Made by a program: the position numbers and the translations under genes. 64,000 nt of DNA from Pseudomonadota bacterium (GTDB lineage Bacteria > UBA10199 > 2-02-FULL-44-16 > JBDRGF01), in contig JBDRGF010000075.1 in NCBI GenBank assembly GCA_043818055.1, positions 1,733 to 65,732 of the forward strand, in the 5' to 3' direction. Positions 8,362 through 28,785 of this stretch are shown here, piece by piece. Under the pieces are notes generated by a model that worked only from the letters and a program-made list of their open reading frames with translations, had not been told where the DNA came from and did not search any database. Within the stretch, counting starts at the first letter, position 1; every line of letters starts with the position of its first letter.

Positions 8362-9129
8362 TTAGCTTTTAATGTTTTTTCTCAGAACTTCAAAGGCAGA
8401 CAACTTTCCATAACAGACCAAAACGCAGGAGTCAGGAATTTTTGTGCTTGCCGGAGGAAGCGACATAAGCCCTTTAGAATCTTCGAGAGATAAGACCATG
8501 ATCTTGCGTTCTCTCAGGCCCGATTCCATCAACGTCTTTCCCGCCAGTGGGGAAAATTCATCGACGGTCAATTTTACAATACCATAGTTATTTTTTTGAT
8601 TTAAGAGCTGTTCAAGATTTGTATATTGCAGATCGGTTACCTGTGTCAGTTTTCTCTTTGCCCATTTATTCAAACCGTTGTTGAACCTTGCGAACCTTGA
8701 AAGGAAATTTATCAGGGCTACGACTCCTATTACGGTCAATATGGTGAATCCTGAGCTTGAAAATTTTCCCCCACCCAGAGATACGATGAATGTGGCGAGA
8801 ACAGAAACGATACCTGCGTTTCCGAGTATGATGAGATAGGTGATGATCTTTCGTCTCTTGGGATGATGGAGGATCATCTCAGATTCCCTAGTCGTAAAGC
8901 CTGTGCTGGAAAATGCTGAAAGCGCCTGAAACCGAGCGACATCCTGAGGCAGCCCCGTGAGCTCGAGGGCGATTCCCCCGAGTTTTACGATCGTGTATGA
9001 AAGAATTATAAAGAGGCCTAATAGTATTAAACTCATATTTCGCAGTCTAACATGATTTTGTTTTGAAAACAATGTGGATTCCAAAATCCTGGATCGGAAT
9101 CCGGGATTTTGGACAAAATTTTTCATCAT
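8362..9129 (-). CDS. Potassium-channel-like membrane protein with a C-terminal TrkA-C (RCK_C) domain
   Basis: Two TM helices flank a pore-like segment SAFSSTGFTT. The C-terminal part resembles TrkA-C. The likely true start is the internal Met at 9036 (MSLILLGLF...), which leaves the upstream palindromic sites non-coding. Confidence 0.55.
   Translation of the reverse strand: MMKNFVQNPGFRSRILESTLFSKQNHVRLRNMSLILLGLFIILSYTIVKLGGIALELTGLPQDVARFQALSAFSSTGFTTRESEMILHHPKRRKIITYLIILGNAGIVSVLATFIVSLGGGKFSSSGFTILTVIGVVALINFLSRFARFNNGLNKWAKRKLTQVTDLQYTNLEQLLNQKNNYGIVKLTVDEFSPLAGKTLMESGLRERKIMVLSLEDSKGLMSLPPASTKIPDSCVLVCYGKLSAFEVLRKNIKS
9080..9113. promoter_or_regulatory. Pair of 14-bp palindromic sites (consensus TCCAGGATTTTGGA) 20 bp apart, about 80-110 bp upstream of the sigma-54 promoter; putative enhancer-binding-protein UAS
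   Basis: tccaaaatcctgga (9080-9093) and tccgggattttgga (9100-9113) are near reverse complements of each other. The same motif pair recurs at 19561-19594 upstream of the second sigma-54 promoter. Confidence 0.5.
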
Positions 9130-9190
9130 AAATATACTAGAAAAAAATCGACCTGTTTATATTTCAACAACTTAATTCCCAAAACAACTT

Positions 9191-9205
9191 TGGCACAATA
9201 ATTGC
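9191..9205 (+). promoter_or_regulatory. Sigma-54 promoter TGGCAC-AATAA-TTGCT about 60 nt upstream of precursor ORF A
   Basis: Exact match to the -24/-12 consensus TGGCAC-N5-TTGCW. It points into the precursor / radical-SAM operon. Confidence 0.7.
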
Positions 9206-9267
9206 TATAGAGATTTTCGAAGCTCGAGCAAAAACAAATTAACCAATAACAAAGAAAGGAGAGGAAA

Positions 9268-9360
9268 ATGGAAGCATTAAAAAAGGGCATTACCGAAATT
9301 GAAATCGTCACAGAAGGCTCTGAAGAAGAGATGCTTTGGGGAGTTGTTGGTGGTAAGTAA
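9268..9360 (+). CDS. Putative RiPP precursor peptide A (30 aa): MEALKKGITEIEIVTEGSEEEMLWGVVGGK
   Basis: Strong RBS AAAGGAGAGG 7 nt upstream. It is a tandem paralog of ORF B and lies immediately upstream of radical-SAM genes. Acidic leader-like region plus a Gly-rich C-terminus carrying Trp and Lys. Confidence 0.6.
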   Translation: MEALKKGITEIEIVTEGSEEEMLWGVVGGK

Positions 9361-9389
9361 ACCAAAAACAATTTAAAAAGGAGAGAAAA

Positions 9390-9488
9390 ATGGAAACGTT
9401 AAGAAAAGACATCAATGAAATTGAAGTTGTCACAGAAGGTTCCGAAGAGGAGATGCTTTGGGGCGTTGGCGGCAGCAAGAACAATTAA
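9390..9488 (+). CDS. Putative RiPP precursor peptide B (32 aa): METLRKDINEIEVVTEGSEEEMLWGVGGSKNN
   Basis: RBS AAAGGAGAGA. Shares 21 of 30 residues with peptide A, including the invariant EIE(I/V)VTEGSEEEMLWGV stretch. Confidence 0.6.
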   Translation: METLRKDINEIEVVTEGSEEEMLWGVGGSKNN

Positions 9489-9502
9489 TGAATTAATCGT
9501 GT

Positions 9503-10894
9503 ATGGGGGAGTCAAACTTGCGACTCCCCTCATACATCATATCTACTATGAAAAAACTACTATTAAATAAAAATGTTATTATCAGGGATGAAAGATCATT
9601 TTGGTTGATGTTTAATCCTAATAATGGAGCTACTGTTAAATTGAACAATGATATTGGTAGTCATATCAAAAAGACACTAGATAATGATGAAAAAAAATTA
9701 AACATACCAAACATCAGCGAAAGAACGATCGATGTTTTAAACAAGGAAGGATTTCTAATAAAAGATGGATGTAATAAAGAAGTCTCCCTGAACAATCGCG
9801 TTCAAATCGGTGAAAGATGCAATTGGGTGGTTGGCCCTCAGATAGAATTCAGTTCAAAAATCTCTCCCGTAGGGTTGCTTTGGGAGATAACAAACATGTG
9901 TAATCTGAATTGTGTTTATTGTTTGCCCAATGCAAAGGAAAAAAGAAAAAACAACAAAGAGTTATCAGCTAATGAATTGAACACCATAGTCGACAATATC
10001 ATAAGGGCAAAGGTTTGCAGGGTGACGATATCGGGCGGTGAGGCGTTGCTTAGAAAAGATGATATGTTTCAGATAGCCAGAAAATTAAAATCTGCAAACA
10101 TAATGGTGGGAGCTATTTCGAATGGATTGATCATTGACGAAAAGATGGCAGATGAGATTAAAGAATTGGGAATTCTCATGGGCGTTAGTTTGGATGCTCC
10201 GAAGGGAAATATCAATTGTATAACAAGGGGAAAAGGCGTTTTTGAAAAGGCTCTGACTGCTATTAGGTTGTTGAAAAAAAGAAAAATTCCATTTAATGTG
10301 ATATCTACAGTTACCAATATCAACTTCGACTACCTTCCAGAATTATTTCTGTTGCTCAGGTCTATAGGAGTTACCAATATCGGCCTTCAGGATTTAAAAC
10401 CATCAAATCCGGATGTGTACGAAAAATTTAAACTTACAAGAGAACAAGAGCTAAAAATAAATGACATGTACGCATATCTTAAATCAACTTATCCGGAGAT
10501 ATGCTTTAATGATAACGAATTGAGAATCTTTTCAGGATTGGTTGATAAAAATGGATGCGAAGACAAAACGATAATGAGGTGTTTGGCAGGCACAGTTACT
10601 GGATATATCAATAGCGAAGGTGACATGTTTCCATGCACAAGTTTAAAAAGCTTAAAAATGGGGAATGCTGTTGAGGATGAAATTACACAGATGTGGCAGC
10701 ATTCAGAAGCAATGAAAAAGCTAAAGAAAATGAAAAATCAAACTACAGATGTATTAAGTGGTTGTGATCAAAGCTGTCCCATCAAGAAAACTTGCGATGG
10801 GGGCTGCCGAGGAGAAGCCTTTTATTTAAATGGAGATTGGAGTTCCTTGCATCCTAGATGCTTGAAGATATTAAGATATGAAAATAAAATTTAA
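9503..10894 (+). CDS. Radical SAM enzyme with C-terminal SPASM-like Cys cluster (peptide-modifying maturase candidate)
   Basis: CNLNCVYCLP is the CX3CX2C radical-SAM motif. A C-terminal CDQSCPIKKTCDGGCRGE auxiliary-cluster motif is present. The roughly 100-aa N-terminal region ahead of the core could be a precursor-binding (RRE-like) domain. An alternative start exists at 9548. Confidence 0.75.
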   Translation: MGESNLRLPSYIISTMKKLLLNKNVIIRDERSFWLMFNPNNGATVKLNNDIGSHIKKTLDNDEKKLNIPNISERTIDVLNKEGFLIKDGCNKEVSLNNRVQIGERCNWVVGPQIEFSSKISPVGLLWEITNMCNLNCVYCLPNAKEKRKNNKELSANELNTIVDNIIRAKVCRVTISGGEALLRKDDMFQIARKLKSANIMVGAISNGLIIDEKMADEIKELGILMGVSLDAPKGNINCITRGKGVFEKALTAIRLLKKRKIPFNVISTVTNINFDYLPELFLLLRSIGVTNIGLQDLKPSNPDVYEKFKLTREQELKINDMYAYLKSTYPEICFNDNELRIFSGLVDKNGCEDKTIMRCLAGTVTGYINSEGDMFPCTSLKSLKMGNAVEDEITQMWQHSEAMKKLKKMKNQTTDVLSGCDQSCPIKKTCDGGCRGEAFYLNGDWSSLHPRCLKILRYENKI

Positions 10895-11909
10895 CACATT
10901 TGATTTTCTGATCACAAATGCATGCGACAAAAGATGCTCGATATGCTGCACCAATCCGCATGCCATGAATGAAATCCAGCATTTAAAATTCAATGATTTT
11001 TGTGGGGTTGTCGATTGTATCGAAAAATACTTAGAAGAAAAAAACGAAACAGGCAACTGGGGGATTTCGGGGGGAGAACCCTTTATGTATAGTGATCATG
11101 AGGTGGGAAAAAATTATACGCTGGTTGATATTGTGGAATATCTTAGCACAAAGAAATTTATAAATAGTGTTTCCATCAGAACGTCAGGCTTCGATATAAA
11201 TTCAAAACAAAAATTGATTTTTGATGCATTAGAGAAACTCAGAGCACGCAAATTTATCACTTTTACTACTAGCTACAATTTATTTCAAAAAGGAGACATC
11301 AACGAAAGATTGAAGTGGATTTTACCAATATGGCTGGAATCTCAAGATAATCTTGAGATTCAAGTTATATATAATAAATCCAATTATCAAAAGACCTTGG
11401 ATGGCTTAAATCAGTTGCTAAAGACGGCAAATTTACTTGTCGATAAATCACAGACCATAAAAATCTTGCAGGAAAGATTGCACAAGTCAAATTATTATAG
11501 CTGGTCTATCGATGGAAAGAGAGTGGATATCAAAACATACCCGGCGTATTCTCATGGGAAAATTGATGGTGAAGAGTTTTTTGAGTTCAAGACAGCAAAA
11601 TGCGTTTCACTATCAAAAGCGGATTCAAACGCTGTCTTAGTCGTTAATTTTGATGGAACGCTACATCATTGTTGTAATCCGTATTATAGTTTTAAAAGAC
11701 GGTTTTTTTCACCAAAGATAGAAGGTCTTTTAAGTGGAGGAATAGCATTGGAAGATATCGCCAATTTGTTTTCAGATGGTATGGAAAGGGTTCTGCTTGA
11801 GCCAAAAATAAAATATAATCTCCAGAGAGATTATTGCGATATGTGTTCAGTACTACTCTTTGGACCTGTAATTACAGCAGAAGGAAAGTTTTGTGAAAAA
11901 CCAAATTGA
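10878..11909 (+). CDS. Radical SAM domain protein (second maturase candidate)
   Basis: ITNACDKRCSICCT has CX3CX2C spacing. Downstream Cys pairs HHCCNPYY and CDMCS are present. It overlaps the upstream gene by 17 nt. Confidence 0.65.
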   Translation: MKIKFNTFDFLITNACDKRCSICCTNPHAMNEIQHLKFNDFCGVVDCIEKYLEEKNETGNWGISGGEPFMYSDHEVGKNYTLVDIVEYLSTKKFINSVSIRTSGFDINSKQKLIFDALEKLRARKFITFTTSYNLFQKGDINERLKWILPIWLESQDNLEIQVIYNKSNYQKTLDGLNQLLKTANLLVDKSQTIKILQERLHKSNYYSWSIDGKRVDIKTYPAYSHGKIDGEEFFEFKTAKCVSLSKADSNAVLVVNFDGTLHHCCNPYYSFKRRFFSPKIEGLLSGGIALEDIANLFSDGMERVLLEPKIKYNLQRDYCDMCSVLLFGPVITAEGKFCEKPN

Positions 11910-13314
11910 ACAATTGATCAGCTATTTTCCTGGCGATTATGTCGAAGCCGCGGTTCAGCATAAGATGGTAAACTCATTCTCTTTGCTAAATGGAAAAGGA
12001 GATGGAACTGATTTCAGCGGGACAAAAACTTCTGCGAGAGTGACTTTGTACAGGGGTGGACAAAGGCTTCACCTGCCGATCAGAGAAATAAATGGCAGAA
12101 TTTCATTTTCGGATTTAAAAGATAAGATTTTTAATTCTCATTTCGATAATAAATTTGATGTATATTATAATAAAAACGGTTTTCAAAGGCTCCAAAAGAA
12201 ATCTAAGAATATACTCCGAGATAAAGAGGCTTTTTACTTAACAAAATGCAAGTTGCCTTTCAATTCAATCAACAACAACACAAAAAGAGAGATATTTGCA
12301 GATAGATTGATAAAATGTGATAGGTGTAAGCCATCCTTTGTCGATCTGATAATTTTTTATCAGGATTCTATGACAGAAACCTGCTATTATAATTCCAACA
12401 ATTTCTATCATAACAGAGTGGATAGCATGATTGAATTCTCCGGTTTTCTTAAATATGAGAGAAAACTATATCCAATTTTTTCGCACAACGAAATGGCAGG
12501 ATTGGAAGTTTTGGTTGATTATGTTTTTGGGAATGGATTTGAAGAAAAGATCGAGATGATAAAAGTATTTAAGAATGCATGGGCTACAAAAATAAAGTCG
12601 GGAATCTATAATGTGATCTTGGACCCAACGCTTGGTGCGGGCTTAATTCACGAAGCATTTGGTCATACTTGTGAGGCGGACATCTCATTCAGTAAAAATG
12701 TTAAAGGTCGAAGGGAGTTATTTGCCAAATTTAGAAATGAAGACATCACTATTGCCGATGATCCAACAATTGCTGAAAAGGGGTTTGTCTATATTGATGA
12801 CGAAGGGGTTATGGCTAAAAAAAAATATCTTGTTGAAAAGGGAGTTCTTAAATCCTGCATGCATTCAATATTTACAGCTACAAACAATAATTCAGAAGTT
12901 ATGGGAAATGGCAGAACATCTGATGCGAGCCAAATTCCAATTCCAAGGATGACAAACACTTATATCGAGCCAAAAAATATCAGTCTGACAGAAATGTTCA
13001 GTTCCCTTGACAATGGATTGTATCTCAAAGGTAACATTGGAGGTGGTAAAACAAACGGAAGAAAGTTTTCTTTAAATGTTGAACAAGGATACATTGTAAA
13101 AAAGGGGAAAATAACAGGGAGCCCTATCTCAAATCTTGTCATAAAGGGAGATTGTTTTGCTACGATCAATAATATTGTCAAAATAGGAAATGATTTAACA
13201 TTTGTGAAAGGTTTTGGAGGATGTTCAAAAAAAGGACAAAACAATCTTCCAGTGTCGGGTGGGTCTCCTCATCTTATGGTAAAAAATGTTTTTGTAACGC
13301 ATGTTGAAAGTTGA
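11893..13314 (+). CDS. TldD/PmbA-family metallopeptidase (candidate leader peptidase)
   Basis: LIHEAFGHTCEAD is the HExxxH-type TldD/PmbA signature. The Gly-rich C-terminal beta-region fits the family. GTG start overlaps the upstream gene. Confidence 0.7.
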   Translation: MKNQIEQLISYFPGDYVEAAVQHKMVNSFSLLNGKGDGTDFSGTKTSARVTLYRGGQRLHLPIREINGRISFSDLKDKIFNSHFDNKFDVYYNKNGFQRLQKKSKNILRDKEAFYLTKCKLPFNSINNNTKREIFADRLIKCDRCKPSFVDLIIFYQDSMTETCYYNSNNFYHNRVDSMIEFSGFLKYERKLYPIFSHNEMAGLEVLVDYVFGNGFEEKIEMIKVFKNAWATKIKSGIYNVILDPTLGAGLIHEAFGHTCEADISFSKNVKGRRELFAKFRNEDITIADDPTIAEKGFVYIDDEGVMAKKKYLVEKGVLKSCMHSIFTATNNNSEVMGNGRTSDASQIPIPRMTNTYIEPKNISLTEMFSSLDNGLYLKGNIGGGKTNGRKFSLNVEQGYIVKKGKITGSPISNLVIKGDCFATINNIVKIGNDLTFVKGFGGCSKKGQNNLPVSGGSPHLMVKNVFVTHVES

Positions 13315-13319
13315 TGTAA

Positions 13320-15293
13320 ATGAATATGAAGATACTCTTAGTCAATCCATATTGGTCCATAGTTTCTAAATATACTCCTTATAGTTTATTGCAATTGGGG
13401 TCATATATCAATGCAAAGACAATTCATAAAGCAGAAGTGTTAGATCTCAACATTGAATTACATGATGATATGTACAATCCTCACATTCTTATTGAAAAGG
13501 CTTGTAATTTGGTTTTGCAAAAGGATTTTGACATATTAGGGATTTCGGTCACCACTATAGACCTTCCGTTTACAGTCAGCTTTACCAAAAAATTTAACAA
13601 ATTGTGCAATAAGCCAGTTGTTTTAGGAGGGATTCATGCAACTCTTGCCCCAGATGAGTTATTTTCACTTTGTCCAGTTGATTACATTGTTCGTGGAGAG
13701 GGAGAGATAACTATTTCCAACCTTCTGGATAATTTGGATATAATGAACAATAAAAATCTTAAGGACATTATGGGTCTTTCTTATCGTGATGGGAGTGCGA
13801 TAGTTCACAATAATAACAGAAAAGTAATTTCCGATCTTTCTATCCTGCCTCTAGTGGATTATCAACTCATAAAACCATTGAAACATTATTTTATCAACAA
13901 ACTTAAAAAAAGTTATATCATGTGCAGCAGGGGATGTGGATACAATTGCAAGTTTTGTTCAGGCAGTCGAATATGGATGAAACAGCGCAGATTTCCCATT
14001 GATAGAATATTGAATGAAATCAAATTTCTAAAAGATTCCGGATCCGAGTTCATTTCCATCCAGGATGATTGTTTGACTATGAAGCGCTCCTGGTTTTTGG
14101 AGTTGGCTGAAGGCATTGGAAAAATAGGCATTAATTGGGGATGTTTGAGCAGGCTCGACCGCATTGATGAAGATATGCTTGATACAATGAAATCAAGCAG
14201 GTGCAAAGAGGTCTATTATGGCATAGAGTCGGGTAGCCCAAGGGTAAGAAAATTTTTGGAAAAAGGACTGATGTTTTCAAATGAAATAATTATAAAAAAA
14301 GTCAAAGACACTTTGAAAAGGGGAATTAATCCAATTTGCTCTTTTATGACAGGCATACCGACTGAAACTGAAGAAGAGTTCAATGAAACGGTTAATCTGG
14401 CCGTTGAAATTAAAAGGTGTGGTGCAAAACCTCAACTCAACCTGCTCACTCCACTTACTGGGACTAGACTCAAAGAAGAATACAAAGACAAAATTATTAA
14501 ATATGACAAGTGGGAGAAAATAGGTTTTGCAGACATTTTTGCAAAGGATCAACATTGGCTATTCAACTATCTTCTGGATGAGTTGAAGGATTATCTTCCG
14601 GACTATTATTTGTTCAAAAATCAAATGCCGCTTAATAGATTTGTTTCAAAGTATATGAAAGCCAGAAAAGAGCTTTCCCTCGAGAGCAAAAGCAACAAGA
14701 TGTTTTTTCTAGATAGAACAGAAGATGAGATATTGGTGCTCAATGGTGAAAGGTTGCGTGTCGATAAAAGCAGTTTTATAGAATTAAAACTCGAATGCGG
14801 CATGCTTGATGAGTACAGAGCTCAGCGCAATAAGCTTTCTTCTAATATCATTTTTATTCAATTTAAATATTCATCCTTCAAGTGCAATATTATTCCTGAA
14901 ACAAAGGAATTTTTAACAGAAATCTTAAAAGAAATTAATTCTGGGTATCGTATAATTATATTAAATCCCCTGCCGCGTTGTTCACTGTCGGATGAAGCGA
15001 CGAAACTGTTACGTGAGATAACGCTCCCTCATAATTGTCTTTGGTGTTCAAATCTTTTTTATAAATGTTTGGATAAGATAAAAATGTGCTCAGCCATAGG
15101 GGATGATGTTGAGCTCAAGGTTCCATTTGAACACATAGATAGCAGGAATAGAATATATCGCTATTTTGTAAAAGAAACTTTGGATAAAAATATAATCAGT
15201 GATAAAAAGTGTAGTGAATGTTCAATGCAACGAGATTGCACTATGCTTTGCATAGGTAGAGGTGATCGACAAAACAATGAGAGTTTTGCATGA
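13320..15293 (+). CDS. B12-binding-domain radical SAM protein (class B-like) with a Cys-rich C-terminal extension
   Basis: The N-terminus MKILLVNPYW...VLGGIHATL resembles a B12-binding domain. YIMCSRGCGYNCKFCSG is the radical-SAM cluster. The roughly 190-aa C-terminus has several CxxC motifs. Confidence 0.7.
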   Translation: MNMKILLVNPYWSIVSKYTPYSLLQLGSYINAKTIHKAEVLDLNIELHDDMYNPHILIEKACNLVLQKDFDILGISVTTIDLPFTVSFTKKFNKLCNKPVVLGGIHATLAPDELFSLCPVDYIVRGEGEITISNLLDNLDIMNNKNLKDIMGLSYRDGSAIVHNNNRKVISDLSILPLVDYQLIKPLKHYFINKLKKSYIMCSRGCGYNCKFCSGSRIWMKQRRFPIDRILNEIKFLKDSGSEFISIQDDCLTMKRSWFLELAEGIGKIGINWGCLSRLDRIDEDMLDTMKSSRCKEVYYGIESGSPRVRKFLEKGLMFSNEIIIKKVKDTLKRGINPICSFMTGIPTETEEEFNETVNLAVEIKRCGAKPQLNLLTPLTGTRLKEEYKDKIIKYDKWEKIGFADIFAKDQHWLFNYLLDELKDYLPDYYLFKNQMPLNRFVSKYMKARKELSLESKSNKMFFLDRTEDEILVLNGERLRVDKSSFIELKLECGMLDEYRAQRNKLSSNIIFIQFKYSSFKCNIIPETKEFLTEILKEINSGYRIIILNPLPRCSLSDEATKLLREITLPHNCLWCSNLFYKCLDKIKMCSAIGDDVELKVPFEHIDSRNRIYRYFVKETLDKNIISDKKCSECSMQRDCTMLCIGRGDRQNNESFA

Positions 15294-19578: not shown

Positions 19579-19594
19579 AATCCAGGATTCTGGA
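19561..19594. promoter_or_regulatory. Second pair of TCCAGGATTTTGGA-type palindromic sites, 20 bp apart, about 90-120 bp upstream of the second sigma-54 promoter
   Basis: tccagaattttgga (19561-19574) and tccaggattctgga (19581-19594) have the same consensus and the same spacing as the pair at 9080-9113. Confidence 0.5.
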
Positions 19595-19681
19595 CAGAAA
19601 ATTAGGATTTTATCCGGCTAAATTGACTGTGTAGTTGTGTAACCATATAAAATATAACGTTTTGTGTTTTTTCCTCCACTT

Positions 19682-19696
19682 TGGCACATGGATTGC
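19682..19696 (+). promoter_or_regulatory. Sigma-54 promoter TGGCAC-ATGGA-TTGCT upstream of the MFS / precursor C / methyltransferase operon
   Basis: Exact -24/-12 consensus. The flanks (cTTTGGCACa...aTTGCTATA) closely resemble the promoter at 9191. Confidence 0.7.
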
Positions 19697-19831
19697 TATA
19701 TATTTCAAAAAGTTAAGCAACAAGTTGTAATAGAGTGCGATAATGGTGGGGTAATATAAAGTTACGTAATGAAGTTTTTATATTCAAATTGAAATTGAAA
19801 TTTATTTTCTAATGAAACATGACTTACCGTA

Positions 19832-21076
19832 ATGATAATCAATGGTAAGAGGCATATGGTAAATAATAAAAACCTTTTACAGATATCCTACTTTATTAAT
19901 CAATTAGGTACTTATACAAGCTATCTTGCCATCATTGCAATAGCTCGGGAACACAATAATTCTATAAATTCTATTGCTATGGTATTGGGTGCTTCAGCGG
20001 CAGGGACAATGGTTGGGTGGCTTTTGACAATGAAATATCTTAAAAATGTGCACGCAAAACTTCTCCTTTCGTCATCGTTGATATTGTCAGGTTTGATGAT
20101 GGTATCAATTTTATGTCTGGTTAATTGGTGGCTAGTTGTTGCTGCTTTTTTTGTGTTAGGAATGTGTACCAATACCTACATGTCATCATTCTATACTTTA
20201 ATTCCCAGGATGATCAAAAAAACAGATGTGCCTAATATTAATCAGAACATTCAGATATTGTCTCAATTAGCCATAGTTATAGGTGCGATTTTGGGCGGCA
20301 TTTTGTTAGATCGGTTTGGGTTTAGGCTTCCGCTATTTGTTGATATTATTTCTTATTTATTAGTTGGGGTTGTTTATATGTGTCTTTCCCATAATAGATT
20401 TGTAATTTTATCAGCAGAGAAAGCGAATGATAATACGAAAGACCAAGAAGTGGTACGTCCAAAATGTCCATTTCAAAGGACATTGTTATTTTCTCCATTG
20501 GTGTTGGCTTTTCTGGTGGCTTTTGCTGCAGGTGCATATAATGTGATTGAAATTCCATTTTTCACCGATATTTTAGGGTTGCCCTATCGCTACATTGGAT
20601 TTTATTTTTCAATTTCGGTATTGGGAATTCCAGTTTTTCATGCTTTGGTACGTAAAAAGATGTTGCAAATGGAGTCGCTGCGATCCCTGTTTATCGGTAT
20701 TGCATTAGGTGGTTTGGTTTATTTAGTATGGGGTATGCAGAGCAGCTTATGGATAACTGGTCTTTTGTTAATTTTATTCAGCCTCTTTCAATTAGTTATA
20801 TTCACTTCAGTGAATAATTATCTACATGCCCATGTATTGGAAGATAATAAACTTCAAACGGTTTTTTCAACTTTGCAATTTGGGAGACGTGTGGCAGCTC
20901 TGCTGGGTAAATTAGCGATTCCCTTTATTGTAGGTTTTGCAGGAGAAAAATTTTCTTTTTCAGTGCTAGGTGTTATTATGATAATTGGATTGATTGTTGT
21001 TTTGATAACCAAAAGAGTGATAGAAGGAAGTATGAGTATTGTTGGAGATTTACAACAAAATGCCGCCGAATATTAA
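19832..21076 (+). CDS. MFS-type transporter (second)
   Basis: About 12 TM helices with typical MFS loop spacing. An alternative start exists at 19856. Confidence 0.6.
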   Translation: MIINGKRHMVNNKNLLQISYFINQLGTYTSYLAIIAIAREHNNSINSIAMVLGASAAGTMVGWLLTMKYLKNVHAKLLLSSSLILSGLMMVSILCLVNWWLVVAAFFVLGMCTNTYMSSFYTLIPRMIKKTDVPNINQNIQILSQLAIVIGAILGGILLDRFGFRLPLFVDIISYLLVGVVYMCLSHNRFVILSAEKANDNTKDQEVVRPKCPFQRTLLFSPLVLAFLVAFAAGAYNVIEIPFFTDILGLPYRYIGFYFSISVLGIPVFHALVRKKMLQMESLRSLFIGIALGGLVYLVWGMQSSLWITGLLLILFSLFQLVIFTSVNNYLHAHVLEDNKLQTVFSTLQFGRRVAALLGKLAIPFIVGFAGEKFSFSVLGVIMIIGLIVVLITKRVIEGSMSIVGDLQQNAAEY

Positions 21077-21095
21077 ATTAGAGAAAGGAGGAGGT

Positions 21096-21176
21096 ATGAA
21101 GCAAATGGATTTGCTTGGATTGGACAACATTGAAATTCAGCAAGAAGGATGTTGCCCTCAGGGAATTGACGGATAA
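21096..21176 (+). CDS. Putative RiPP precursor peptide C (26 aa): MKQMDLLGLDNIEIQQEGCCPQGIDG
   Basis: Strong RBS AAAGGAGGAGG 6 nt upstream. It shares the leader motif NIEIxxEG with peptides A and B. The CC-containing C-terminus sits directly upstream of the methyltransferase and the anSME-like radical SAM. Confidence 0.5.
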   Translation: MKQMDLLGLDNIEIQQEGCCPQGIDG

Positions 21177-21270
21177 TACATCAAGAATATTCATATTATT
21201 ATGAATCTATTATCCGGGGGATCTCATTGCTTTAGTCCCCCGGATAACATGATTCAAAAGGAGTGATGCG

Positions 21271-22281
21271 ATGAATCCTGTAAGTCAGATGAGAAGTTGG
21301 ATTAATTCTATGCACATTGCTAAGGCTGTTAATATTGGTGTTGAGGTGGGATTATTCGGTGTGATTGCTGAAATAAAATGTCCAACAACAGTTCAAGAAC
21401 TAGCCAGGCAAGCTTGCTGTGATCAGGGATATGTAGAATCCTGGATACATGTTATGCAAGCGGCAGGAATTATTGATGTTGATCAAAATGGTCATCTGTC
21501 GTTTGTTAGTGACTGGAAGGAAGCCCTTACAGATCGAGATAGTGATAAATATGTGCCGCCGATGATGGAATGTCATTTCGCTATTGCAGATACCTATCCG
21601 AGATTTGCAAAATTTTTTAGAAATGGAAATTGCATGCATTCAAATGAATTCAGTGAACCACTGCTGGTCGGTATTGCTGCGGATGCAGTGCGATTTGCAA
21701 ACTATTTTTTGCATGTAGCTGTGGATAAGATTCCAGATTTGAAGCTAAAACTGGAAGAAGGAATAGATGTTTTAGACGTGGGTTGTGGTGGCGGGCAATT
21801 TCTTTCAAAAATAGCAACACAATTTCCAAAGTCGCGCTATGTAGGTATCGACCCGTTAGATAAAGTTATTGATATGGCTAGGGAGGAGGCCAAACATTAT
21901 AAAGTAGAGAGTAGAGTAGATTTTATTGTCGGTTGCGGTTCCGAAATCAAAAAGGAATGTGCTGATTTAATAATTCTTAATGAAGTACCTCACGAAATGG
22001 ATGCTAAAGTAAGACAACCGGTGCTGGATGCTTGTTGTAAAGCATTGAAAAAGGATGGTCTTTTGTTTCTGGTTGATATTTTGGCCCCCGAAAATGCCGG
22101 GGATTATGTACGGCCTAATTTCTTATTATCATCACTAGTTCAGTTTTTTGAAAAACCATGGGGTTCAAAATTGTTGACATACTCAGAATTGAAAATCTTA
22201 ATTAGAAATGCAGGTTTTTCGGATTTGACACACTTGGTGTCAGCAGATGATGTAGTTGTCGCATATACAAAACCCATATAG
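21271..22281 (+). CDS. Class I SAM-dependent methyltransferase (O-methyltransferase-like, with N-terminal dimerisation/winged-helix-like region)
   Basis: IDVLDVGCGGGQF is the glycine-rich SAM-binding motif I. A downstream acidic motif LIILNEV is present. Confidence 0.75.
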   Translation: MNPVSQMRSWINSMHIAKAVNIGVEVGLFGVIAEIKCPTTVQELARQACCDQGYVESWIHVMQAAGIIDVDQNGHLSFVSDWKEALTDRDSDKYVPPMMECHFAIADTYPRFAKFFRNGNCMHSNEFSEPLLVGIAADAVRFANYFLHVAVDKIPDLKLKLEEGIDVLDVGCGGGQFLSKIATQFPKSRYVGIDPLDKVIDMAREEAKHYKVESRVDFIVGCGSEIKKECADLIILNEVPHEMDAKVRQPVLDACCKALKKDGLLFLVDILAPENAGDYVRPNFLLSSLVQFFEKPWGSKLLTYSELKILIRNAGFSDLTHLVSADDVVVAYTKPI

Positions 22282-22289
22282 ATATATTA

Positions 22290-23522
22290 ATGAAAAAAAA
22301 TTATCATAATATTTTAGTTGATGGAAAAAAAATTCGTTTTTATCCCGATGAAATGTTATTTTATAAAGGCAGTTCATTTCCGAAGGATGTGGATAAAGAT
22401 AGAAATGTGAGGCCATCCGTTTGTAAATCGGTAAAGATCGCAAACAGCAGGAAACTACAACTGGCGTTGACAATCACTAAGAGCTGCAACATGAAATGTA
22501 CATATTGCTATGATAAGAAAAATATGAATATTTCTTCTAATTCGAAAAATATGCATTTTAGTACACTATGCGATGCAGTGAATAAGTTTTGTAATAGCAG
22601 GATTGGTAATTACAATATACATTTCATAGGTGGAGAGCCGCTTTTATGTCTGGATTTAATCAAACAAACTGTAGATTATTGCAATAAGAAGGCTGCAATT
22701 GATAGCTCGGTATTTACATATAGTATTTCGACTAACGGTACAATAATTGACAAAGCCATAGCAAAGTATTTTTCCGAAAATAAAATTAAAATAAGATTAA
22801 CCTTTGATGGTGTAGAAGAATCTCAGAATGTCAATCGACCGATGCGCAATCGGGAGCAGAGCTTTTCTCATGTGGTACGATCGTTATCAAATCTAAGAAA
22901 TGCAAGTTGTGATTTTAGTGTTATATCTGTACTTCATCCCAATTTTCTTCATAAAATGCTTAAAGCTTTTGAAAATATAATTCAATACAATCCAAATGCG
23001 ATAAAATTTGTTCCTCTAATAAATATAGATGCGCTTGGATGTAAGTATGTCAGTGATCATAGTGTCATGTTTGCAGAATCTCTTCGGAATATCGCTAATC
23101 AATTGATCAGTAGAAAAGATGAAAAAACAATTATGAAAATTAAGAATATAAGCGTGTATTTGCCTTATATTCATAATCGTATAGCGAACATCAAGGGGTG
23201 TATTGCAGTTAATAAACAATCATATGCAGTGAATGTAGATGGTTCTGTGTATCCATGCTCAACCTTTGTTGGTATAGATACTCATCGTTTGGGGATGATA
23301 AATGATTATGAACTCAATCCTAATTCCATAAAATGTGAATCAATAACGACGAGATGTTTATCCTGCTGGGCACGAACATTATGTCCTGGAGTATGTGCTT
23401 ATACTGCCGATAATAATTCAGCATGCTCATCAGCAATGAATTGTGAGTTTATAAAAGGAGAGATTACTGTTGCTTTGGAAGTATATAGCAAGTTGTATCC
23501 TCATAAAATTAGAAGGGAGTGA
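22290..23522 (+). CDS. Radical SAM/SPASM protein of the anSME/thioether-forming maturase family
   Basis: LTITKSCNMKCTYCYD is the CX3CX2C motif. The C-terminal SPASM-like stretch is CESITTRCLSCWARTLCPGVCAY. Confidence 0.75.
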   Translation: MKKNYHNILVDGKKIRFYPDEMLFYKGSSFPKDVDKDRNVRPSVCKSVKIANSRKLQLALTITKSCNMKCTYCYDKKNMNISSNSKNMHFSTLCDAVNKFCNSRIGNYNIHFIGGEPLLCLDLIKQTVDYCNKKAAIDSSVFTYSISTNGTIIDKAIAKYFSENKIKIRLTFDGVEESQNVNRPMRNREQSFSHVVRSLSNLRNASCDFSVISVLHPNFLHKMLKAFENIIQYNPNAIKFVPLINIDALGCKYVSDHSVMFAESLRNIANQLISRKDEKTIMKIKNISVYLPYIHNRIANIKGCIAVNKQSYAVNVDGSVYPCSTFVGIDTHRLGMINDYELNPNSIKCESITTRCLSCWARTLCPGVCAYTADNNSACSSAMNCEFIKGEITVALEVYSKLYPHKIRRE

Positions 23523-23531
23523 CGAATTGCC

Positions 23532-24716
23532 ATGAATAACCTAATAAAAAAAGCATTTCAACTTTGCTGTTTTTTAATTATCATACTAATACCATTTTAT
23601 ATTCAAGCGGATCAAAATATTACAATAGCGCTGGTGAATAATTTTTCGGATTTTAGATCTCCATGTGGTGATCCTAAAGGAGAAAACTTTTTGAATGCTT
23701 TGAATTTAGCATTGGAAGATTTTTTAAAAGATCATAAAAAATATTCAGATCAAATAATACTTAGAAAATATGATTATGGTAATTCACCACTTAATACGGA
23801 ACGTATTACATTAGAAGCTGTTCGCTCCGATGCAGTAGCATTAATTGGATATCCATGCTCTAGTTTTGCTCTTCTTGCTGCTCCAATAGCTGAGGCGCAC
23901 AATGTTGCTATGATTACGCCATCGGCTACAATTGATTCATTAACCGAGAGTCGTGAATATGTATATCGCGCTTCATTTAGGGATGAAGATCAAGCTAAAG
24001 TTATGGCGGAATTTCTGGCAAATGATCTGGATAAGAAAAAGGCTGTAGTTATTGTTAATCAGAATTACCCATATTGCACTAATTTATCAGAGCAATTCCA
24101 GCATTATTTTAAAAAATATGGAGGAAAGATTGTAAAAGTGTTTAACACGCTTTCGAGCCAAAAAAGCTATAATAAAGAAGTAAATGAAATGAATCACTTA
24201 TCATATGATGTAGTTTTTATTCCTAATCATGAAATGGAGAGCGCTACTATGGTTAAAGAAATATATAATTTGAGTATGGAAACCACTGTTGCTGGTGGAG
24301 ACGGATGGGGGAATTTGTATGGGTATATTTTTCCTGCTATAGTTGGAAATAAAAAAATTGATGCGTATGCAATTGCTCATTGGAATCGTGATTCTGTTGA
24401 CACTAGTTCAAAAGAATTTCAGAAAAGGTATTATAATCGTTTTGGATTTTATCCAAACGATAATTCAGCATTAGCTTATGATGCTATGAGTCTGCTTTTA
24501 CATGCAATATCTAAGGCGAAAAAAATAAATAGGAAAGAAATCAACGCAGAGCTCAAATCAATCCGGTCTCATTTCGGTGTAACTGGGAGATTCTCTTATA
24601 ATCGAGGTAATGGAACGCCTTCAAAAAATGTTTATATAGTAAAATATCCTCAACCCAATTTGTCTCATGAAGGTGATCGTAGATTTGAGCATTACAAGAG
24701 TGTTATCGTAAAATAA
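23532..24716 (+). CDS. Periplasmic substrate-binding protein (type I PBP, Leu/Ile/Val-binding / ANF-receptor-like), secreted
   Basis: Has a signal peptide, and its architecture and length fit type I PBPs. It sits directly upstream of, and is translationally coupled to, the sensor kinase. Confidence 0.6.
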   Translation: MNNLIKKAFQLCCFLIIILIPFYIQADQNITIALVNNFSDFRSPCGDPKGENFLNALNLALEDFLKDHKKYSDQIILRKYDYGNSPLNTERITLEAVRSDAVALIGYPCSSFALLAAPIAEAHNVAMITPSATIDSLTESREYVYRASFRDEDQAKVMAEFLANDLDKKKAVVIVNQNYPYCTNLSEQFQHYFKKYGGKIVKVFNTLSSQKSYNKEVNEMNHLSYDVVFIPNHEMESATMVKEIYNLSMETTVAGGDGWGNLYGYIFPAIVGNKKIDAYAIAHWNRDSVDTSSKEFQKRYYNRFGFYPNDNSALAYDAMSLLLHAISKAKKINRKEINAELKSIRSHFGVTGRFSYNRGNGTPSKNVYIVKYPQPNLSHEGDRRFEHYKSVIVK

Positions 24717-24717
24717 T

Positions 24718-26499
24718 ATGCAGCTTAAATTGAGTCATAAAATAAACTTCTATTTTATTTTAATCATGCTTCTGGTGACGCTATGTTCTGTTGTATTTAT
24801 TTTTTACATGGCAAAAGTTGAACGCAGTAAGCAAATCGACATGGCGGTTTCTAAAATGAAAAATATAGCTGCTATTGAATCAGAAGATATTATTGCTCAA
24901 ATTCTTTTTCATTCATACTCGTCACTCGATCTAATAAGTAAAAAAATTCTAGAAGAAAACAAAAATATATTTGTTGATATTCGACTTAATGATTTTGTTA
25001 CAGGAAATGAATTGAAATATAAATATTGTATTCCTGATAATAATGGAGTGTGCTACAACAGGGATGATGATGTGCTTCAATTCGTATATTCCTTGAATTA
25101 TGGAGGTAAGGATTTAGGAAGCCTCATCATGGCACAACAGATGGGTTCTTTCACTATGCTGATTAAGCCATCAGTATCAGTAATTGTATTATTTGCATCC
25201 TTGGTAACAATAGCGATGCTCGGAATGTTTATGTTCTTTATCAGAAAAAATATCAGTCAGCCAATCAATATATGTATTCGATCATTTTCAGAAATTAAAT
25301 CTGGGAAGAGAAAAAATATTCCAAAAATGAATACTCGCGATATGAATATACTAGTTGAAAATATTAATTCACTTATGGAAGATTTAGGAATATTTCAAAA
25401 AATTGCTGAAAGAAATACACATTTAGCCGCCATAGGACAAATATCATCCCACGTCGCACACGATATGCGATCGCCGCTGTCTGTCATACAGGGATATCTG
25501 CGGGGAAATCAAAAAAACATGAAACTTCTCGAAGCAGCAAAGGGAAGCGCAAATAAACTGAATAACATGGCCGATGAACTATTGGATTATGCCAAGGCCT
25601 CGAAGATTGAGCCGGTTGCAACATCGTTAAAAAGCCTCGTTGAAACCACCGTCAGCAAAGAGGTTAAAAATATCGCCGATGAAAAGGGTGTAAAGCTTAT
25701 TTATGATGTGAGGGATGATGTTGTTGCTAAGATAGATCATTACCGAATGGAACGTGTCCTGACCAACCTCATCACGAACGCCGTTCAGGCGATTGATGCG
25801 GAATCAGGTGAGGTAAAAGTTTCTGTTAAATCAGACAACGAAAATCTCAAAATAACAGTTACAGATAATGGCAGGGGAATAAGCAAAGAAGATCAGAAAA
25901 AGATTTTCGATAGCTTTTTCACAAAGGGAAAGATGAGAGGGACAGGCCTTGGGCTCTCATATTGCAAAAACGTCATAGAGGCACATGGGGGCGCTATTGC
26001 AGTAGAGAGTGAAGTTGGAAGAGGAACAGAGTTTTCGATTAATATTCCATCTTGTATTACAACACCACATGCCACATGCTACATACCACATGCTGTCCCT
26101 AGCCATCAGACATCAGCGGTCAGCGGTCAGCCGACAAAAGGCGAGTTGGACTCGGATAACGACATCCTCGTCGTCGATGATGATGTGGGAATAATTTTAA
26201 TATGGTGTGGCCTGATAGAGAAGAAAACAGGAAAACCGCCCATAACCGCAAAGAGCCCTGAAGAGATGATGAAAGCCAAAATCGATTACAGCAGGGTATC
26301 AAAGGCGATTGTTGACTATCAATATGAGGGAAGTAAGCTCACCGGCCTCGATGTCGTACAATTTTTGAAAGAGAAGGGCGTGCAGGTGATCCACATGTGC
26401 ACGGGGATGTATCACGATGAAGAATTGCAATCGCAGGCGAGAAAGTTAGGCGTTGCTTCGATCATACCTAAGCCTATTAGCGCCGATACGAATATTTGA
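24718..26499 (+). CDS. Sensor histidine kinase (two TM helices, periplasmic loop, HisKA + HATPase_c) with a degenerate C-terminal receiver-like extension
   Basis: H-box SHVAHDMRSPLSVIQGY. N/G boxes ITNAVQAID, TDNGRGISKEDQKKIFDSFFT, GTGLGLSY. The C-terminus DILVVDDDVGI...IVDYQ resembles a receiver domain. Confidence 0.8.
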   Translation: MQLKLSHKINFYFILIMLLVTLCSVVFIFYMAKVERSKQIDMAVSKMKNIAAIESEDIIAQILFHSYSSLDLISKKILEENKNIFVDIRLNDFVTGNELKYKYCIPDNNGVCYNRDDDVLQFVYSLNYGGKDLGSLIMAQQMGSFTMLIKPSVSVIVLFASLVTIAMLGMFMFFIRKNISQPINICIRSFSEIKSGKRKNIPKMNTRDMNILVENINSLMEDLGIFQKIAERNTHLAAIGQISSHVAHDMRSPLSVIQGYLRGNQKNMKLLEAAKGSANKLNNMADELLDYAKASKIEPVATSLKSLVETTVSKEVKNIADEKGVKLIYDVRDDVVAKIDHYRMERVLTNLITNAVQAIDAESGEVKVSVKSDNENLKITVTDNGRGISKEDQKKIFDSFFTKGKMRGTGLGLSYCKNVIEAHGGAIAVESEVGRGTEFSINIPSCITTPHATCYIPHAVPSHQTSAVSGQPTKGELDSDNDILVVDDDVGIILIWCGLIEKKTGKPPITAKSPEEMMKAKIDYSRVSKAIVDYQYEGSKLTGLDVVQFLKEKGVQVIHMCTGMYHDEELQSQARKLGVASIIPKPISADTNI

Positions 26500-26522
26500 A
26501 TTCGCTGAGATGGGAGGCAAAG

Positions 26523-27929
26523 ATGAACAAAGATTATACGATACTCTGTGTTGACGATGATGAGAATTTTCTTGTTCAGCTGGAGAGTATATTTGCGGAT
26601 TACACAGTTTTCAAAGCGACATGCATGGATGATGCCCTGTCGATCATAGACCGGAACGATATCAATACAGTTCTATTGGACATCAGCCTCAACGGCGAGG
26701 ATGGTCTGGATGGGTTGAACCTGATTAAAAAAAGAAATTCGTTCATCGATGTCGTGATGGTGACAGGCCATAGGGACACCGAATATATAGTGAAGGCGAT
26801 TCAAAGCGGCGCGAGCGATTATGTGTTGAAGCCTGTGGATCAGGGAGCGTTGCTCGCGTGCGTGGAAAAATCGAAACAATCCAAAAAAGAAAAGGAAAAA
26901 TATAATGCTCTGCTCTGTGAGTTGAATTCAGCGGATATCGCTTCGAGGATTGTCGGCAGGAGCGCGGAGCTCTCAAAAATTCTGAATATAGCAAAGAAGG
27001 TGAAGGGACATCACAGGGCAAACATCCTGATCGAAGGAGAGAGCGGCACGGGAAAGGAACTCCTGGCGCGCTACATCCACAGGCTTGAGGAGAATACAAG
27101 GCGACCGTTCATTGCGATCAATTGTGCTGCTATTCCGGACAATCTTATAGAATCAGAATTGTTTGGCCACGAAAAAGGAGCTTTTACCGGTGCGATTGGC
27201 AAGAAGATAGGGAAATTCGTTCTTGCTGACAAAGGTGATATCTTCCTTGATGAAATCAGTTCACTAAAACCTGATCTGCAGGCAAAATTATTGCGCGTGT
27301 TTCAGGAAAAGGAATTTTGTCCCCTTGGCGGCAACGATCCAGTGAAATCGGATTTCAGGGTGATCGCCGCGACCAATGAAAATCTGGAGGAGCTGGTGAA
27401 TTCAGAAAAGTTCAGGCTCGATCTCTATCATCGCATGAAGATCGTCAATCTCTACATGCCTCCACTTCGCGACCGGAAGGATGATATAGAAGAGCTTGCT
27501 CAACATTTCCTCAGAAAATATTCAGATGGGAAAAGGGGTTTGAAAATTGCAGATAAAGCAATCGCAATATTAAAGGAATATTCCTGGCCCGGAAATGTGA
27601 GAGAACTGGAAAATATAATACACCGGGCAATCGTCCTCGCTGAGGGCTATATGCTTTCGGAGAAGGATTTTTCGCATTTGCTAACCCCTTCCTCAGCCTG
27701 CATCAATGAAGGGCAGTCCACGCCCTTTATACAATTGTTTTCGGAGATATCGCCCAAACTCTCCGGCAATGTGATGCCGCTTAAGGATTATGTCATGAAG
27801 GCCGAGACCGAATATTTAAAAGAGGTGCTCGATCTCAAGGCCGGCAACAAAGACGAGGCAGCTGTTTCTCTCAAGATGAGCCGTTCGAGTTTTTATTCAA
27901 AATTGAAACAATGCGGTTTTTTAACATGA
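26523..27929 (+). CDS. Sigma-54-dependent Fis-family response regulator (NtrC-like enhancer-binding protein)
   Basis: Receiver domain (CVDDDENF...LLDISL). AAA+ sigma-54 activation domain with Walker A GESGTGKE, the GAFTGA motif and ESELFGHEKGAFTGA. C-terminal HTH. RBS GGGAGG lies ahead of ATG 26523 (the track ORF begins at 26496). Confidence 0.85.
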   Translation: MNKDYTILCVDDDENFLVQLESIFADYTVFKATCMDDALSIIDRNDINTVLLDISLNGEDGLDGLNLIKKRNSFIDVVMVTGHRDTEYIVKAIQSGASDYVLKPVDQGALLACVEKSKQSKKEKEKYNALLCELNSADIASRIVGRSAELSKILNIAKKVKGHHRANILIEGESGTGKELLARYIHRLEENTRRPFIAINCAAIPDNLIESELFGHEKGAFTGAIGKKIGKFVLADKGDIFLDEISSLKPDLQAKLLRVFQEKEFCPLGGNDPVKSDFRVIAATNENLEELVNSEKFRLDLYHRMKIVNLYMPPLRDRKDDIEELAQHFLRKYSDGKRGLKIADKAIAILKEYSWPGNVRELENIIHRAIVLAEGYMLSEKDFSHLLTPSSACINEGQSTPFIQLFSEISPKLSGNVMPLKDYVMKAETEYLKEVLDLKAGNKDEAAVSLKMSRSSFYSKLKQCGFLT

Positions 27930-28762: not shown

Positions 28763-28785
28763 TCAGCTGAAGGGAGTCTTTCGGG

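Follow-up and report, generated by a model that had tools for sequence, protein, structure and literature searches.

The window analyzed here is a stretch of 64,000 nucleotides (64 kb) from a Pseudomonadota bacterium (GenBank assembly GCA_043818055.1, contig JBDRGF010000075.1), and all six-frame and motif counts given below refer to its whole length. At positions 9080–27929 it carries two operons which very probably form a biosynthetic gene cluster for peptides that are synthesized ribosomally and modified after translation (RiPPs), of the radical S-adenosylmethionine (radical-SAM) type, and which are predicted to belong to a single sigma-54 regulon. The core of the cluster belongs to a rare and undescribed family that is scattered in bacteria and archaea, and it is wired here to its own sigma-54 sensor-regulator circuit. 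Two sub-pathways are present under one regulator. One is a conserved cassette consisting of a peptide, a SPASM enzyme and a small radical-SAM enzyme; the other is an orphan set consisting of a Cys-containing peptide, a methyltransferase and a PapB-like enzyme.

Three small open reading frames of 30, 32 and 26 amino acids (P1, P2 and P3), which an earlier note on this DNA had described as precursor-like, are present in the sequence, each with a purine-rich ribosome-binding site. They are found beside radical-SAM enzymes that display the CX3CX2C motif together with an auxiliary-cluster domain, which is the arrangement general to radical-SAM RiPP loci. The note had also claimed four radical-SAM enzymes, two of them with SPASM domains. 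Family scans and motifs agree with this count, however the start of the first enzyme (rSAM1) is at position 9548 and not at 9503. The public protein is 448 aa in length and starts at 9548, and the ATG at 9503 sits within a hairpin, thus 9548 is most likely the start. The family scans comprise Pfam and NCBIfam, with the curated cut-offs of NCBIfam taken as membership thresholds. They recover the TldD-type peptidase, the class I methyltransferase, the RND pump and the two MFS pumps named in the note, as well as its sensor module, which is found as a Peripla_BP_6 binding protein, a hybrid histidine kinase and a sigma-54 activator of the NtrC family. A leader motif was said to be common to the three peptides; in the form IE[IV]..EG it occurs at the three small open reading frames and nowhere else in the six-frame translation. 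The interpretation as a RiPP cluster gains support from the radical-SAM/SPASM enzymes, which are genuine, and from open reading frames of the P1/P2 type, which are conserved beside homologous enzymes in unrelated organisms. The note could name no RiPP family for the peptides, and none fits here: no peptide or enzyme scores at the curated cut-off of any named NCBIfam family, and a full-text search with the core motif gave nothing relevant.

The precursor family and its two conserved enzymes

P1 displays the leader ..ITEIEIVTEG.. and the core ..MLWGVVGGK. P2 is a paralogue with the leader INEIEVVTEG and the core ..MLWGVGGSKNN. The two differ at 14 of 29 codons, and seven of these differences are synonymous. 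Both are called as genes by IMG and are missing from the NCBI annotation, as is seen from its accessions MFH1653629 to MFH1653637, which run consecutively. The peptides gave no matches against NCBIfam at E-values up to 10. Both P1 and P2 carry a Lys six residues past the Trp. A Trp-Lys link by way of this residue was considered as a feature of the family and rejected, as the Lys is limited to P1 and P2 in the family alignment.

The rSAM1 sequence has few relatives. A search of 5.8 billion proteins returned 11 proteins at E-values of 1e-20 or lower. Among one genome for each of 185,579 species there are 10 loci at 33%–38% identity, after which there is a cliff to 28% or less. A metagenome scan gave about nine loci, one of which is a fragment of the window's own locus, and the family totals about 16 loci over all collections searched. 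The hosts are metagenome-assembled genomes of Gammaproteobacteria, an alphaproteobacterium (Cohaesibacter), Bacteroidota, Myxococcales, Oligoflexia, Holosporaceae and two archaeal metagenome-assembled genomes, including Bathyarchaeota.

Small open reading frames upstream of the SPASM gene were searched with the regular expression [WF]G[AVC][AVG]G in 16 dereplicated family loci and, as controls, in 44 loci of unrelated SPASM enzymes. The core motif [W/F]-G-[V/A/C]-x-G is found upstream of the rSAM1 homologue in 9 of the 16 family loci, from bacteria as well as archaea, and in none of the 44 controls (core sequences are given in Table 1). The conservation in relatives on which the earlier note had made its proposal depend is therefore present for the P1/P2 type; for P3 there are no relatives to compare. 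The W-G-V-(V/G)-G core of P1 and P2 is the hallmark of a rare precursor family that is always located beside one family of SPASM enzymes with a putative RiPP recognition element (RRE). In the alignment of the family precursors, an alternating hydrophobic strand (EIEIVT, IDILI, YEIVC, FKVVT, FQVID, FEVVS) lies about 10 residues before the aromatic residue at near-fixed spacing, as would be expected of a leader strand that docks on an RRE. The conserved part of the core is only about five residues family-wide, and the precursors have long variable C-terminal tails and several copies per locus.

The Oligoflexia locus L015 is of a different kind. The open reading frame upstream of its SPASM homologue (9336–9554) encodes a 72 aa peptide with a double-glycine-type leader (..LEKVSGG..) and without the W-G-x-G-G core, and therefore the rSAM1 family pairs also with another precursor type.

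In the structural model of rSAM1, three strands plus helices form an N-terminal domain that can be aligned with the N-terminal part of SuiB; Pfam gives no PqqD match. The best NCBIfam matches of rSAM1 are MftC (TIGR03962; 135 bits against a cut-off of 265), NirJ/AhbD and PqqE, and all are far below the cut-offs. Membership in the mycofactocin or pyrroloquinoline quinone (PQQ) families was rejected on these sub-threshold scores, on the peptide ends, which are GGK or SKNN and not GVY, and on the absence of mftB/D/E/F neighbours. The triceptide maturase models (GrrM/OscB, AmcB, YhhB) also miss their cut-offs, with 71.6 bits against 310 and 69.4 against 425. Triceptides have an aromatic-X-X core in which the third residue has a beta-carbon. 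The [WF]-G-[VAC] of the nine loci matches this pattern, a match that proves nothing about the bond formed. The V-G-G of the core is also similar to TVGG repeats, which was the prompt for considering a cyclopropyl synthase. A Gly-Tyr-Trp motif, whose Tyr coordinates auxiliary cluster I, is described as a unique mark of all radical-SAM cyclopropyl synthases (TvgB/TigE). This motif is absent from rSAM1 and from rSAM3, the SPASM enzyme of operon 2, the match to the TigE profile is just 56 bits, and the idea was rejected.

The second conserved partner, rSAM2, is a small and divergent protein. It displays CDKRCSIC (CX3CX2C), a GGE motif and four further Cys that are invariant across its family, and these motifs indicate that it is a genuine radical-SAM member despite a Pfam score below the cut-off (Table 1). 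Homologues of rSAM2 are located directly downstream of the SPASM enzyme in five loci (L002, L004, L010, L014 and L091), with 21%–27% identity and E-values of 1e-14 to 1e-25. These five are exactly the W-G-[V/A]-G-G loci, and L171 shares the layout. Only 42 relatives of rSAM2 came out of an exhaustive HMMER search through 1.84 billion representatives. Its modelled fold is nearest to EpeE, with a small margin over MoaA (18.0) and ChlB (17.0).

No TldD homologue, cobalamin (B12) enzyme, binding protein, sigma-54 activator or sigma-54 promoter is found in the other family loci. Thus sigma-54 control, whose consensus is missing from them, is not a family trait. By this comparison sigma-54 control and the sensor module, like TldD and the B12 enzyme, are additions specific to the window genome. 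In its operon 1 the conserved cassette has been extended by genes for a cobalamin radical-SAM enzyme, a TldD that stands alone, and pumps of the RND and the MFS type. RND genes also follow the rSAM1 homologues in L001 and L008.

Other family loci show additions of their own. In the gammaproteobacterial loci L001 (9136–9744) and L171 (274–909) the precursor gene is preceded by one for a secreted and conserved protein with repeats, about 200 aa in length (..NGNITFESGNG..VIGNVIGGKI..), which has no counterpart in the window. The loci with a G-W-G-A-G-G-C core have an extra radical-SAM protein of 445 aa between the precursors and the SPASM homologue (L004, 7427–8764; L171, 1231–2568; L007/L092). 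L004 also has a CPBP (Rce1-like) protease at the place held by TldD in the window.

Operon 2 and the sigma-54 circuit

P3 displays the leader ..LDNIEIQQEG (strand NIEIQQEG) and a Cys-rich core, CCPQGIDG. A set of about 15 billion proteins does not include this exact sequence, nor is it in any public gene call. The local score of the P3 leader with that of P1 is matched by 156 of 20,000 shuffles. The core has a Cys upstream of an Asp acceptor, plus a free C-terminus, as is characteristic of ranthipeptide precursors.

The rSAM3 SPASM motif was missed by Pfam, yet it is canonical (Table 1). The top NCBIfam match is PapB (NF047865) with 178.6 bits, which is below the cut-off of 340. PapB forms thioethers from Cys to Asp/Glu or to the C-terminus. 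The best solved relative is CteB, of which the first ~97 residues have no counterpart in rSAM3. The search for rSAM3 homologues returned only the protein itself at an E-value of 1e-30 and three matches with 24%–25% identity at 1e-8; rSAM3 is thus an orphan, with no relative closer than 25% identity. The methyltransferase encoded between P3 and rSAM3 has a weak match to ApyS (39 bits against a cut-off of 400).

The note's claim that a perfect sigma-54 promoter heads each operon holds: exact matches to TGGCAC-N5-TTGCW are present at 9191–9206 and 19682–19697. There are three such exact matches in the 64 kb where 0.04 are expected, and two of the three are these promoters, at a distance of 60–135 bp upstream from the gene that opens the respective operon. 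Both promoters have a pair of 14-bp palindromes upstream of them (Table 1). The palindrome TCCNNNATNNTGGA has five sites in the window (eight strand-wise matches against 1.0 expected), and four of these are at the two promoters. The geometry of the palindrome pairs matches that of enhancer-binding-protein sites. The only activator gene in the locus closes operon 2. The features of an NtrC-family sigma-54 regulon are thus found together, i.e. the activator domains, the exact -24/-12 promoters and the upstream palindromes, the last being predicted sites. Scans for sigma-70 promoters and for terminators gave counts equal to the shuffled expectation. A literature search that combined sigma-54 with radical-SAM RiPPs gave nothing relevant.

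The third exact sigma-54 element, at 3919–3934 on the minus strand, is about 40 bp upstream of an unannotated 179 aa open reading frame (3340–3879, minus strand) and has no palindrome pair. The fifth copy of the palindrome (39443–39456, minus strand) is inside a coding region far from the cluster and is probably a chance match.

The shared leader motif, the palindromes and the promoter type, together with the lack of a full RRE in rSAM3, argue that the two operons are one functional unit. Leader recognition is possibly shared between the operons. A stable stem-loop without a U-tract is located directly 3′ of the precursor genes in both operons (Table 1). Analogous elements are present in other bacteriocin and RiPP operons, and on this basis the stem-loops after P2 and P3 may stabilise or attenuate the transcript, such that precursor transcript is enriched over enzyme transcript.

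The third-position GC content (GC3) shows a mosaic. The cluster genes (9548–27929) have values of 0.22–0.39 and most flanking genes 0.46–0.62, with one flanking gene (4329–6983) at 0.375. MFS transporter 1 has a host-like GC3 of 0.51 though it lies amid the low-GC cluster. The right-hand junction is near position 25500, within the kinase gene: the sensor half (residues 1–260) has a GC3 of 0.29 and the catalytic half 0.46. The activator gene is at 0.52. This mosaic suggests that the cluster was acquired horizontally and joined to a kinase core and an activator that were already resident.

Proposed pathway, related systems and rival explanations

In the proposed pathway, a signal bound to the secreted LivJ-like protein would activate the membrane kinase, and the phosphorylated NtrC-type regulator would bind the palindrome pairs and open both sigma-54 promoters. 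Induction would be self-reinforcing because the sensor and regulator genes are situated in operon 2. The leader strand of P1 and P2, about 10 residues before the Trp, would dock on the RRE of rSAM1, which may then use radical chemistry to install a link at the invariant aromatic-Gly-aliphatic site; by analogy with SuiB this would most likely be a C-C bond, or else something similar. rSAM2 would abstract a C-alpha hydrogen, with L-to-D epimerisation the most likely outcome by analogy with EpeE. The B12 enzyme, which is probably a C-methyltransferase, would add one or more methyl groups to the peptide, TldD would trim the leader, and the RND and MFS pumps would export the product. For P3, rSAM3 would form a thioether between the sulfur of a Cys and either the side chain of the downstream Asp or the C-terminus, and the methyltransferase may cap the carboxylate as a methyl ester or methylate the peptide otherwise. 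That the ligand of the binding protein might be the exported product itself is speculative.

The streptide-type radical-SAM RiPPs (SuiB/StrB; Lys-Trp C-C cross-link) correspond to rSAM1, with its putative RRE, in their RRE-radical SAM-SPASM architecture. Among solved structures SuiB fits the rSAM1 model best, and its alignment is the longest and takes in the N-terminal domain. The core here has an invariant Trp or Phe, and P1 and P2 have a Lys six residues after the Trp. However identity to SuiB is 15%, the related WgkB model of NCBIfam scores 118 bits against a cut-off of 650, the Lys is not conserved in the family, and the taxa differ. Streptococcal members use Rgg/SHP quorum sensing, unlike the sigma-54 regulation found here.

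Compared with the epipeptide enzymes (EpeE/YydG), rSAM2 has the same size and build, i.e. a radical-SAM core followed by a short C-terminal domain in which additional Cys are conserved. Val and Ile are the residues that EpeE epimerises at C-alpha, and the conserved residue located two after the Trp or Phe here is Val, Ala or Cys. Identity, however, is 17% and the sequence match is limited to the first ~70 residues. The precursor is unrelated to EpeX, and rSAM2 always accompanies a SPASM enzyme and is not found alone. Epipeptides are reported as restricted to Bacillota.

The ranthipeptides (PapB/freyrasin) are related to operon 2 by the top match of rSAM3 and by the two Cys followed by an Asp and a free C-terminus in P3. 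The differences are the score of rSAM3 below the cut-off, the single CX4-5D site, a nearest database relative with 25% identity, the coupled methyltransferase and a P3 leader that peptides of a non-Cys class also have.

Biphenomycin-like and aminopyruvatide clusters resemble the locus in the combination of a B12 radical-SAM enzyme with a partner-less TldD, and in the ApyD and ApyS matches. The best NCBIfam match of the B12 enzyme is ApyD (NF050148), a C-beta methylase whose product is beta-methyl-tyrosine, at 157 bits against a cut-off of 750. PbsP is a partner-less HExxxH TldD protease found with a B12 radical-SAM enzyme in a biphenomycin-like RiPP cluster (PMC12257519), and is thus a precedent for RiPP maturation by a protease of this kind. 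The TldD protein of the window likewise displays HExxxH within a RiPP cluster, and no second TldD/PmbA gene is found in the locus. Unlike these clusters, the locus has no MNIO, P450, arginase or cupin gene and its precursor motifs are unrelated.

With respect to regulation, the closest systems are NtrC/AtoC-type sigma-54 regulons. The activator best matches AtoC and NtrC, the kinase is of AtoS/ZraS type, and regulons of this type with a binding-protein co-sensor have tandem palindromes about 100 bp upstream of exact -24/-12 promoters. Here, in contrast, the controlled genes are a RiPP pathway.

Several observations weigh against a single RiPP cluster as described. No enzyme reaches the curated threshold of any named NCBIfam family, and the chemical assignments are thus distant resemblances. 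The leader of P3 compared with that of P2 is weak taken alone (1,230 of 20,000 shuffles score as well), P3 and rSAM3 are without relatives for a comparison of conservation, rSAM3 lacks a full RRE, and the Cys-to-Asp spacing of P3 is CX4D or CX5D, unlike the CX3D motif of PapA with its repeated sites. The locus has no adaptor gene for the RND pump, and the DNA comes from a contig assembled out of a metagenome. In five of the 16 family loci no precursor of whatever type could be detected, and in a sixth the precursor is of another type. In addition, four of the ten closest database homologues of rSAM1 (L169, L170, L172 and L173), as well as L016, are located in nonribosomal peptide synthetase-polyketide synthase (NRPS-PKS) clusters. 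These make up about a third of the family, and no small precursor open reading frame was found or called beside them; they lie next to genes for a hexapeptide-repeat acyltransferase, an alpha/beta hydrolase and a PKS dehydratase-like protein. This branch points to a probable non-ribosomal substrate. The rSAM1 family is therefore not exclusively RiPP but has a RiPP branch and a non-ribosomal branch.

The NRPS-PKS branch has to be considered for the window as well, where the enzymes could act on a non-ribosomal metabolite and the small open reading frames be chance occurrences or regulatory leader peptides, as would be compatible with P3 never having been called as a gene. This is very improbable, given the core motif upstream in 9 of 16 family loci of bacteria and archaea against 0 of 44 controls, the ribosome-binding sites, synonymous-substitution excess and terminal hairpins at the small open reading frames, the RRE-like N-terminal domain on rSAM1, and the absence of NRPS and PKS genes from the window. 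A pathway of the PQQ or mycofactocin type is improbable to a lesser degree. In such a pathway the core is cross-linked, TldD digests the rest, and a small molecule is released, exported and sensed by the LivJ-like protein. The MftC, NirJ/AhbD and PqqE matches of rSAM1, the few conserved core residues, the TldD-type protease and a binding protein of the amino-acid/small-ligand class all agree with it. However the rSAM1 scores are far under the cut-offs, homologues of MftB/D/E/F and of PqqB/C/D are missing from the window, as are partner oxidoreductases, three exporters are a poor fit to an intracellular cofactor, and long variable tails with multiple precursor copies are typical of peptide products.

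Two unrelated adjacent clusters with no common biosynthetic step, i.e. a W-G-x-G-G peptide in operon 1 and a ranthipeptide-like product with its own regulator in operon 2, are decidedly improbable. The rSAM1/rSAM2 cassette is found elsewhere without any operon 2 gene, rSAM3 is an orphan and the composition is mosaic, as such an origin would have it. Against this, operons 1 and 2 share the paired palindrome and the exact sigma-54 promoter ahead of them, the window has hardly any other copy of this palindrome, the sole activator gene is in operon 2, IE[IV]..EG is confined to the three peptides, and rSAM3 has no full RRE of its own.

Radical-SAM RiPP clusters are a known kind and uncharacterised ones are common; the cluster in the window is unusually well defined and directly testable. 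With respect to the libraries and papers searched, what is new is the family of precursors, a SPASM enzyme paired with an EpeE-like one, the layout in which two cores have a shared leader, and control by sigma-54 and a two-component system. Radical-SAM RiPPs, e.g. darobactin and the ranthipeptides, rank among the main sources of antibiotic leads and of new chemistry in peptides. The precursor-enzyme pair spans Gammaproteobacteria to Bathyarchaeota and is absent from the curated family libraries and the literature searched, and rSAM2 may represent an epimerase-like partner outside of the reported range of the epipeptide epimerase, the Bacillota. The locus would allow a direct test of whether one leader motif can route two chemically different cores (W-G-V-G-G and C-C-P-Q-G-I-D-G) through one pathway. 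The exact promoters, defined activator sites and cognate sensor would ease switching on an otherwise silent cluster in a heterologous host. The product may be an antibiotic, a signal or both. A bolder proposal is that the [W/F]-G-[V/A]-x-G peptides are a new RiPP class of bacteria and archaea in which a SuiB-like SPASM enzyme and an EpeE-like enzyme jointly introduce undescribed chemistry, e.g. an aromatic-to-aliphatic cross-link and a D-residue, and that the exported product serves here as an autoinducer which the binding-protein/kinase/NtrC module detects. Taken as a whole this is rather unlikely; if true, the locus would be the first signalling circuit of a Gram-negative bacterium that is built on a radical-SAM peptide, depends on sigma-54 and amplifies itself.

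Layout and surroundings of the locus

The features of the locus are listed in Table 1. Genes inside each operon overlap, abut or nearly abut.

Table 1. Predicted features of the locus, with precursor cores and NRPS-PKS-embedded rSAM1 homologues from other loci
Feature	Position	Strand	Remarks
Upstream activator site 1	9080–9113	+	Two 14-bp palindromes, TCCAAAATCCTGGA and TCCGGGATTTTGGA; centres 20 bp apart; ~95 bp upstream of -24 element
Sigma-54 -24/-12 promoter, operon 1	9191–9206	+	TGGCACAATAATTGCT, exact consensus
P1 precursor, 30 aa	9268–9360	+	MEALKKGITEIEIVTEGSEEEMLWGVVGGK; GGAG 6 nt before ATG
P2 precursor, 32 aa, P1 paralogue	9390–9488	+	METLRKDINEIEVVTEGSEEEMLWGVGGSKNN; GGAG 6 nt before ATG
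Strong stem-loop	9499–9537	+	Directly 3′ of P1/P2 genes, no U-tract; -24.8 kcal/mol, z -5.7, 0/200 shuffles as stable
rSAM1, radical-SAM/SPASM maturase with N-terminal RRE-like domain	9548–10894	+	Radical_SAM + SPASM
rSAM2, small divergent radical-SAM, 343 aa, one predicted auxiliary cluster	10878–11909	+	Radical_SAM 23.9 bits vs Pfam cut-off 29.5
Stand-alone TldD-type metalloprotease, putative leader peptidase	11893–13314	+	PmbA_TldD_3rd domain, HEAFGH motif
Cobalamin-binding radical-SAM enzyme	13320–15293	+	B12-binding + Radical_SAM
RND-type permease	15290–18343	+	Pfam/NCBIfam; locus lacks adaptor and outer-membrane genes
MFS transporter 1	18340–19578	+	Pfam/NCBIfam; start overlaps RND stop codon; upstream activator site 2 overlaps 3′ end
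Upstream activator site 2	19561–19594	+	Two 14-bp palindromes, TCCAGAATTTTGGA and TCCAGGATTCTGGA; 20 bp apart; ~105 bp upstream of -24
Sigma-54 -24/-12 promoter, operon 2	19682–19697	+	TGGCACATGGATTGCT, exact consensus
MFS transporter 2	19832–21076	+	Pfam/NCBIfam
P3 precursor, 26 aa	21096–21176	+	MKQMDLLGLDNIEIQQEGCCPQGIDG, preceded by AGGAGGAGG; alternative start at Met4 possible
13-bp stem-loop, no U-tract	21210–21247	+	Directly 3′ of P3; 98-nt segment -31.6 kcal/mol, z -4.5
Class I SAM methyltransferase, N-terminal winged-helix (HTH_65)	21271–22281	+	Pfam/NCBIfam
rSAM3, radical-SAM/SPASM, nearest PapB-type thioether (ranthipeptide) maturases	22290–23522	+	CX3CX2C + canonical CX2CX5CX3C
Secreted periplasmic binding protein, Peripla_BP_6, LivJ-like	23532–24716	+	Signal peptide; putative signal receptor
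Membrane hybrid histidine kinase	24718–26499	+	Two transmembrane segments, H-box, HATPase, C-terminal REC
NtrC-family sigma-54 enhancer-binding response regulator	26496–27929	+	REC, AAA+ (GAFTGA), Fis-type helix-turn-helix (HTH_8)
Upstream-peptide core, L090/L091			..LLWGVGGSSGG
Upstream-peptide core, L010			..LAWGVGGGSGG
Upstream-peptide core, L011/L014			..ADWGVGGV..
Upstream-peptide core, L004/L007/L171			..VGWGAGGC..
Upstream-peptide core, L013			..MDFGVGGS
Upstream-peptide core, L001/L009			..ALFGCVGA
Upstream-peptide core, L006 (variant)			..RWGGLFGAGLA
NRPS-PKS-embedded rSAM1 homologues	L169 8001–9314; L170 1057–2367; L172 524–1705; L173 5001–6314; L016 10001–11275		33%–37% identity

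An Rfam scan of positions 8500–28500 gave zero matches at E-values of 0.1 or lower, and therefore no riboswitch or known leader RNA is present in this region. ARAGORN found no tRNA or tmRNA in the whole window; there is thus no obvious integration site.

Directly downstream of the activator gene and on the same strand, positions 27989–30259 encode proteins which have zero matches in Pfam or NCBIfam. These are three tandem paralogous P-loop proteins of about 250 aa each, and they display the motifs GRPAAGKSEF, GRPACGKSEF and GKPACGKSEL.

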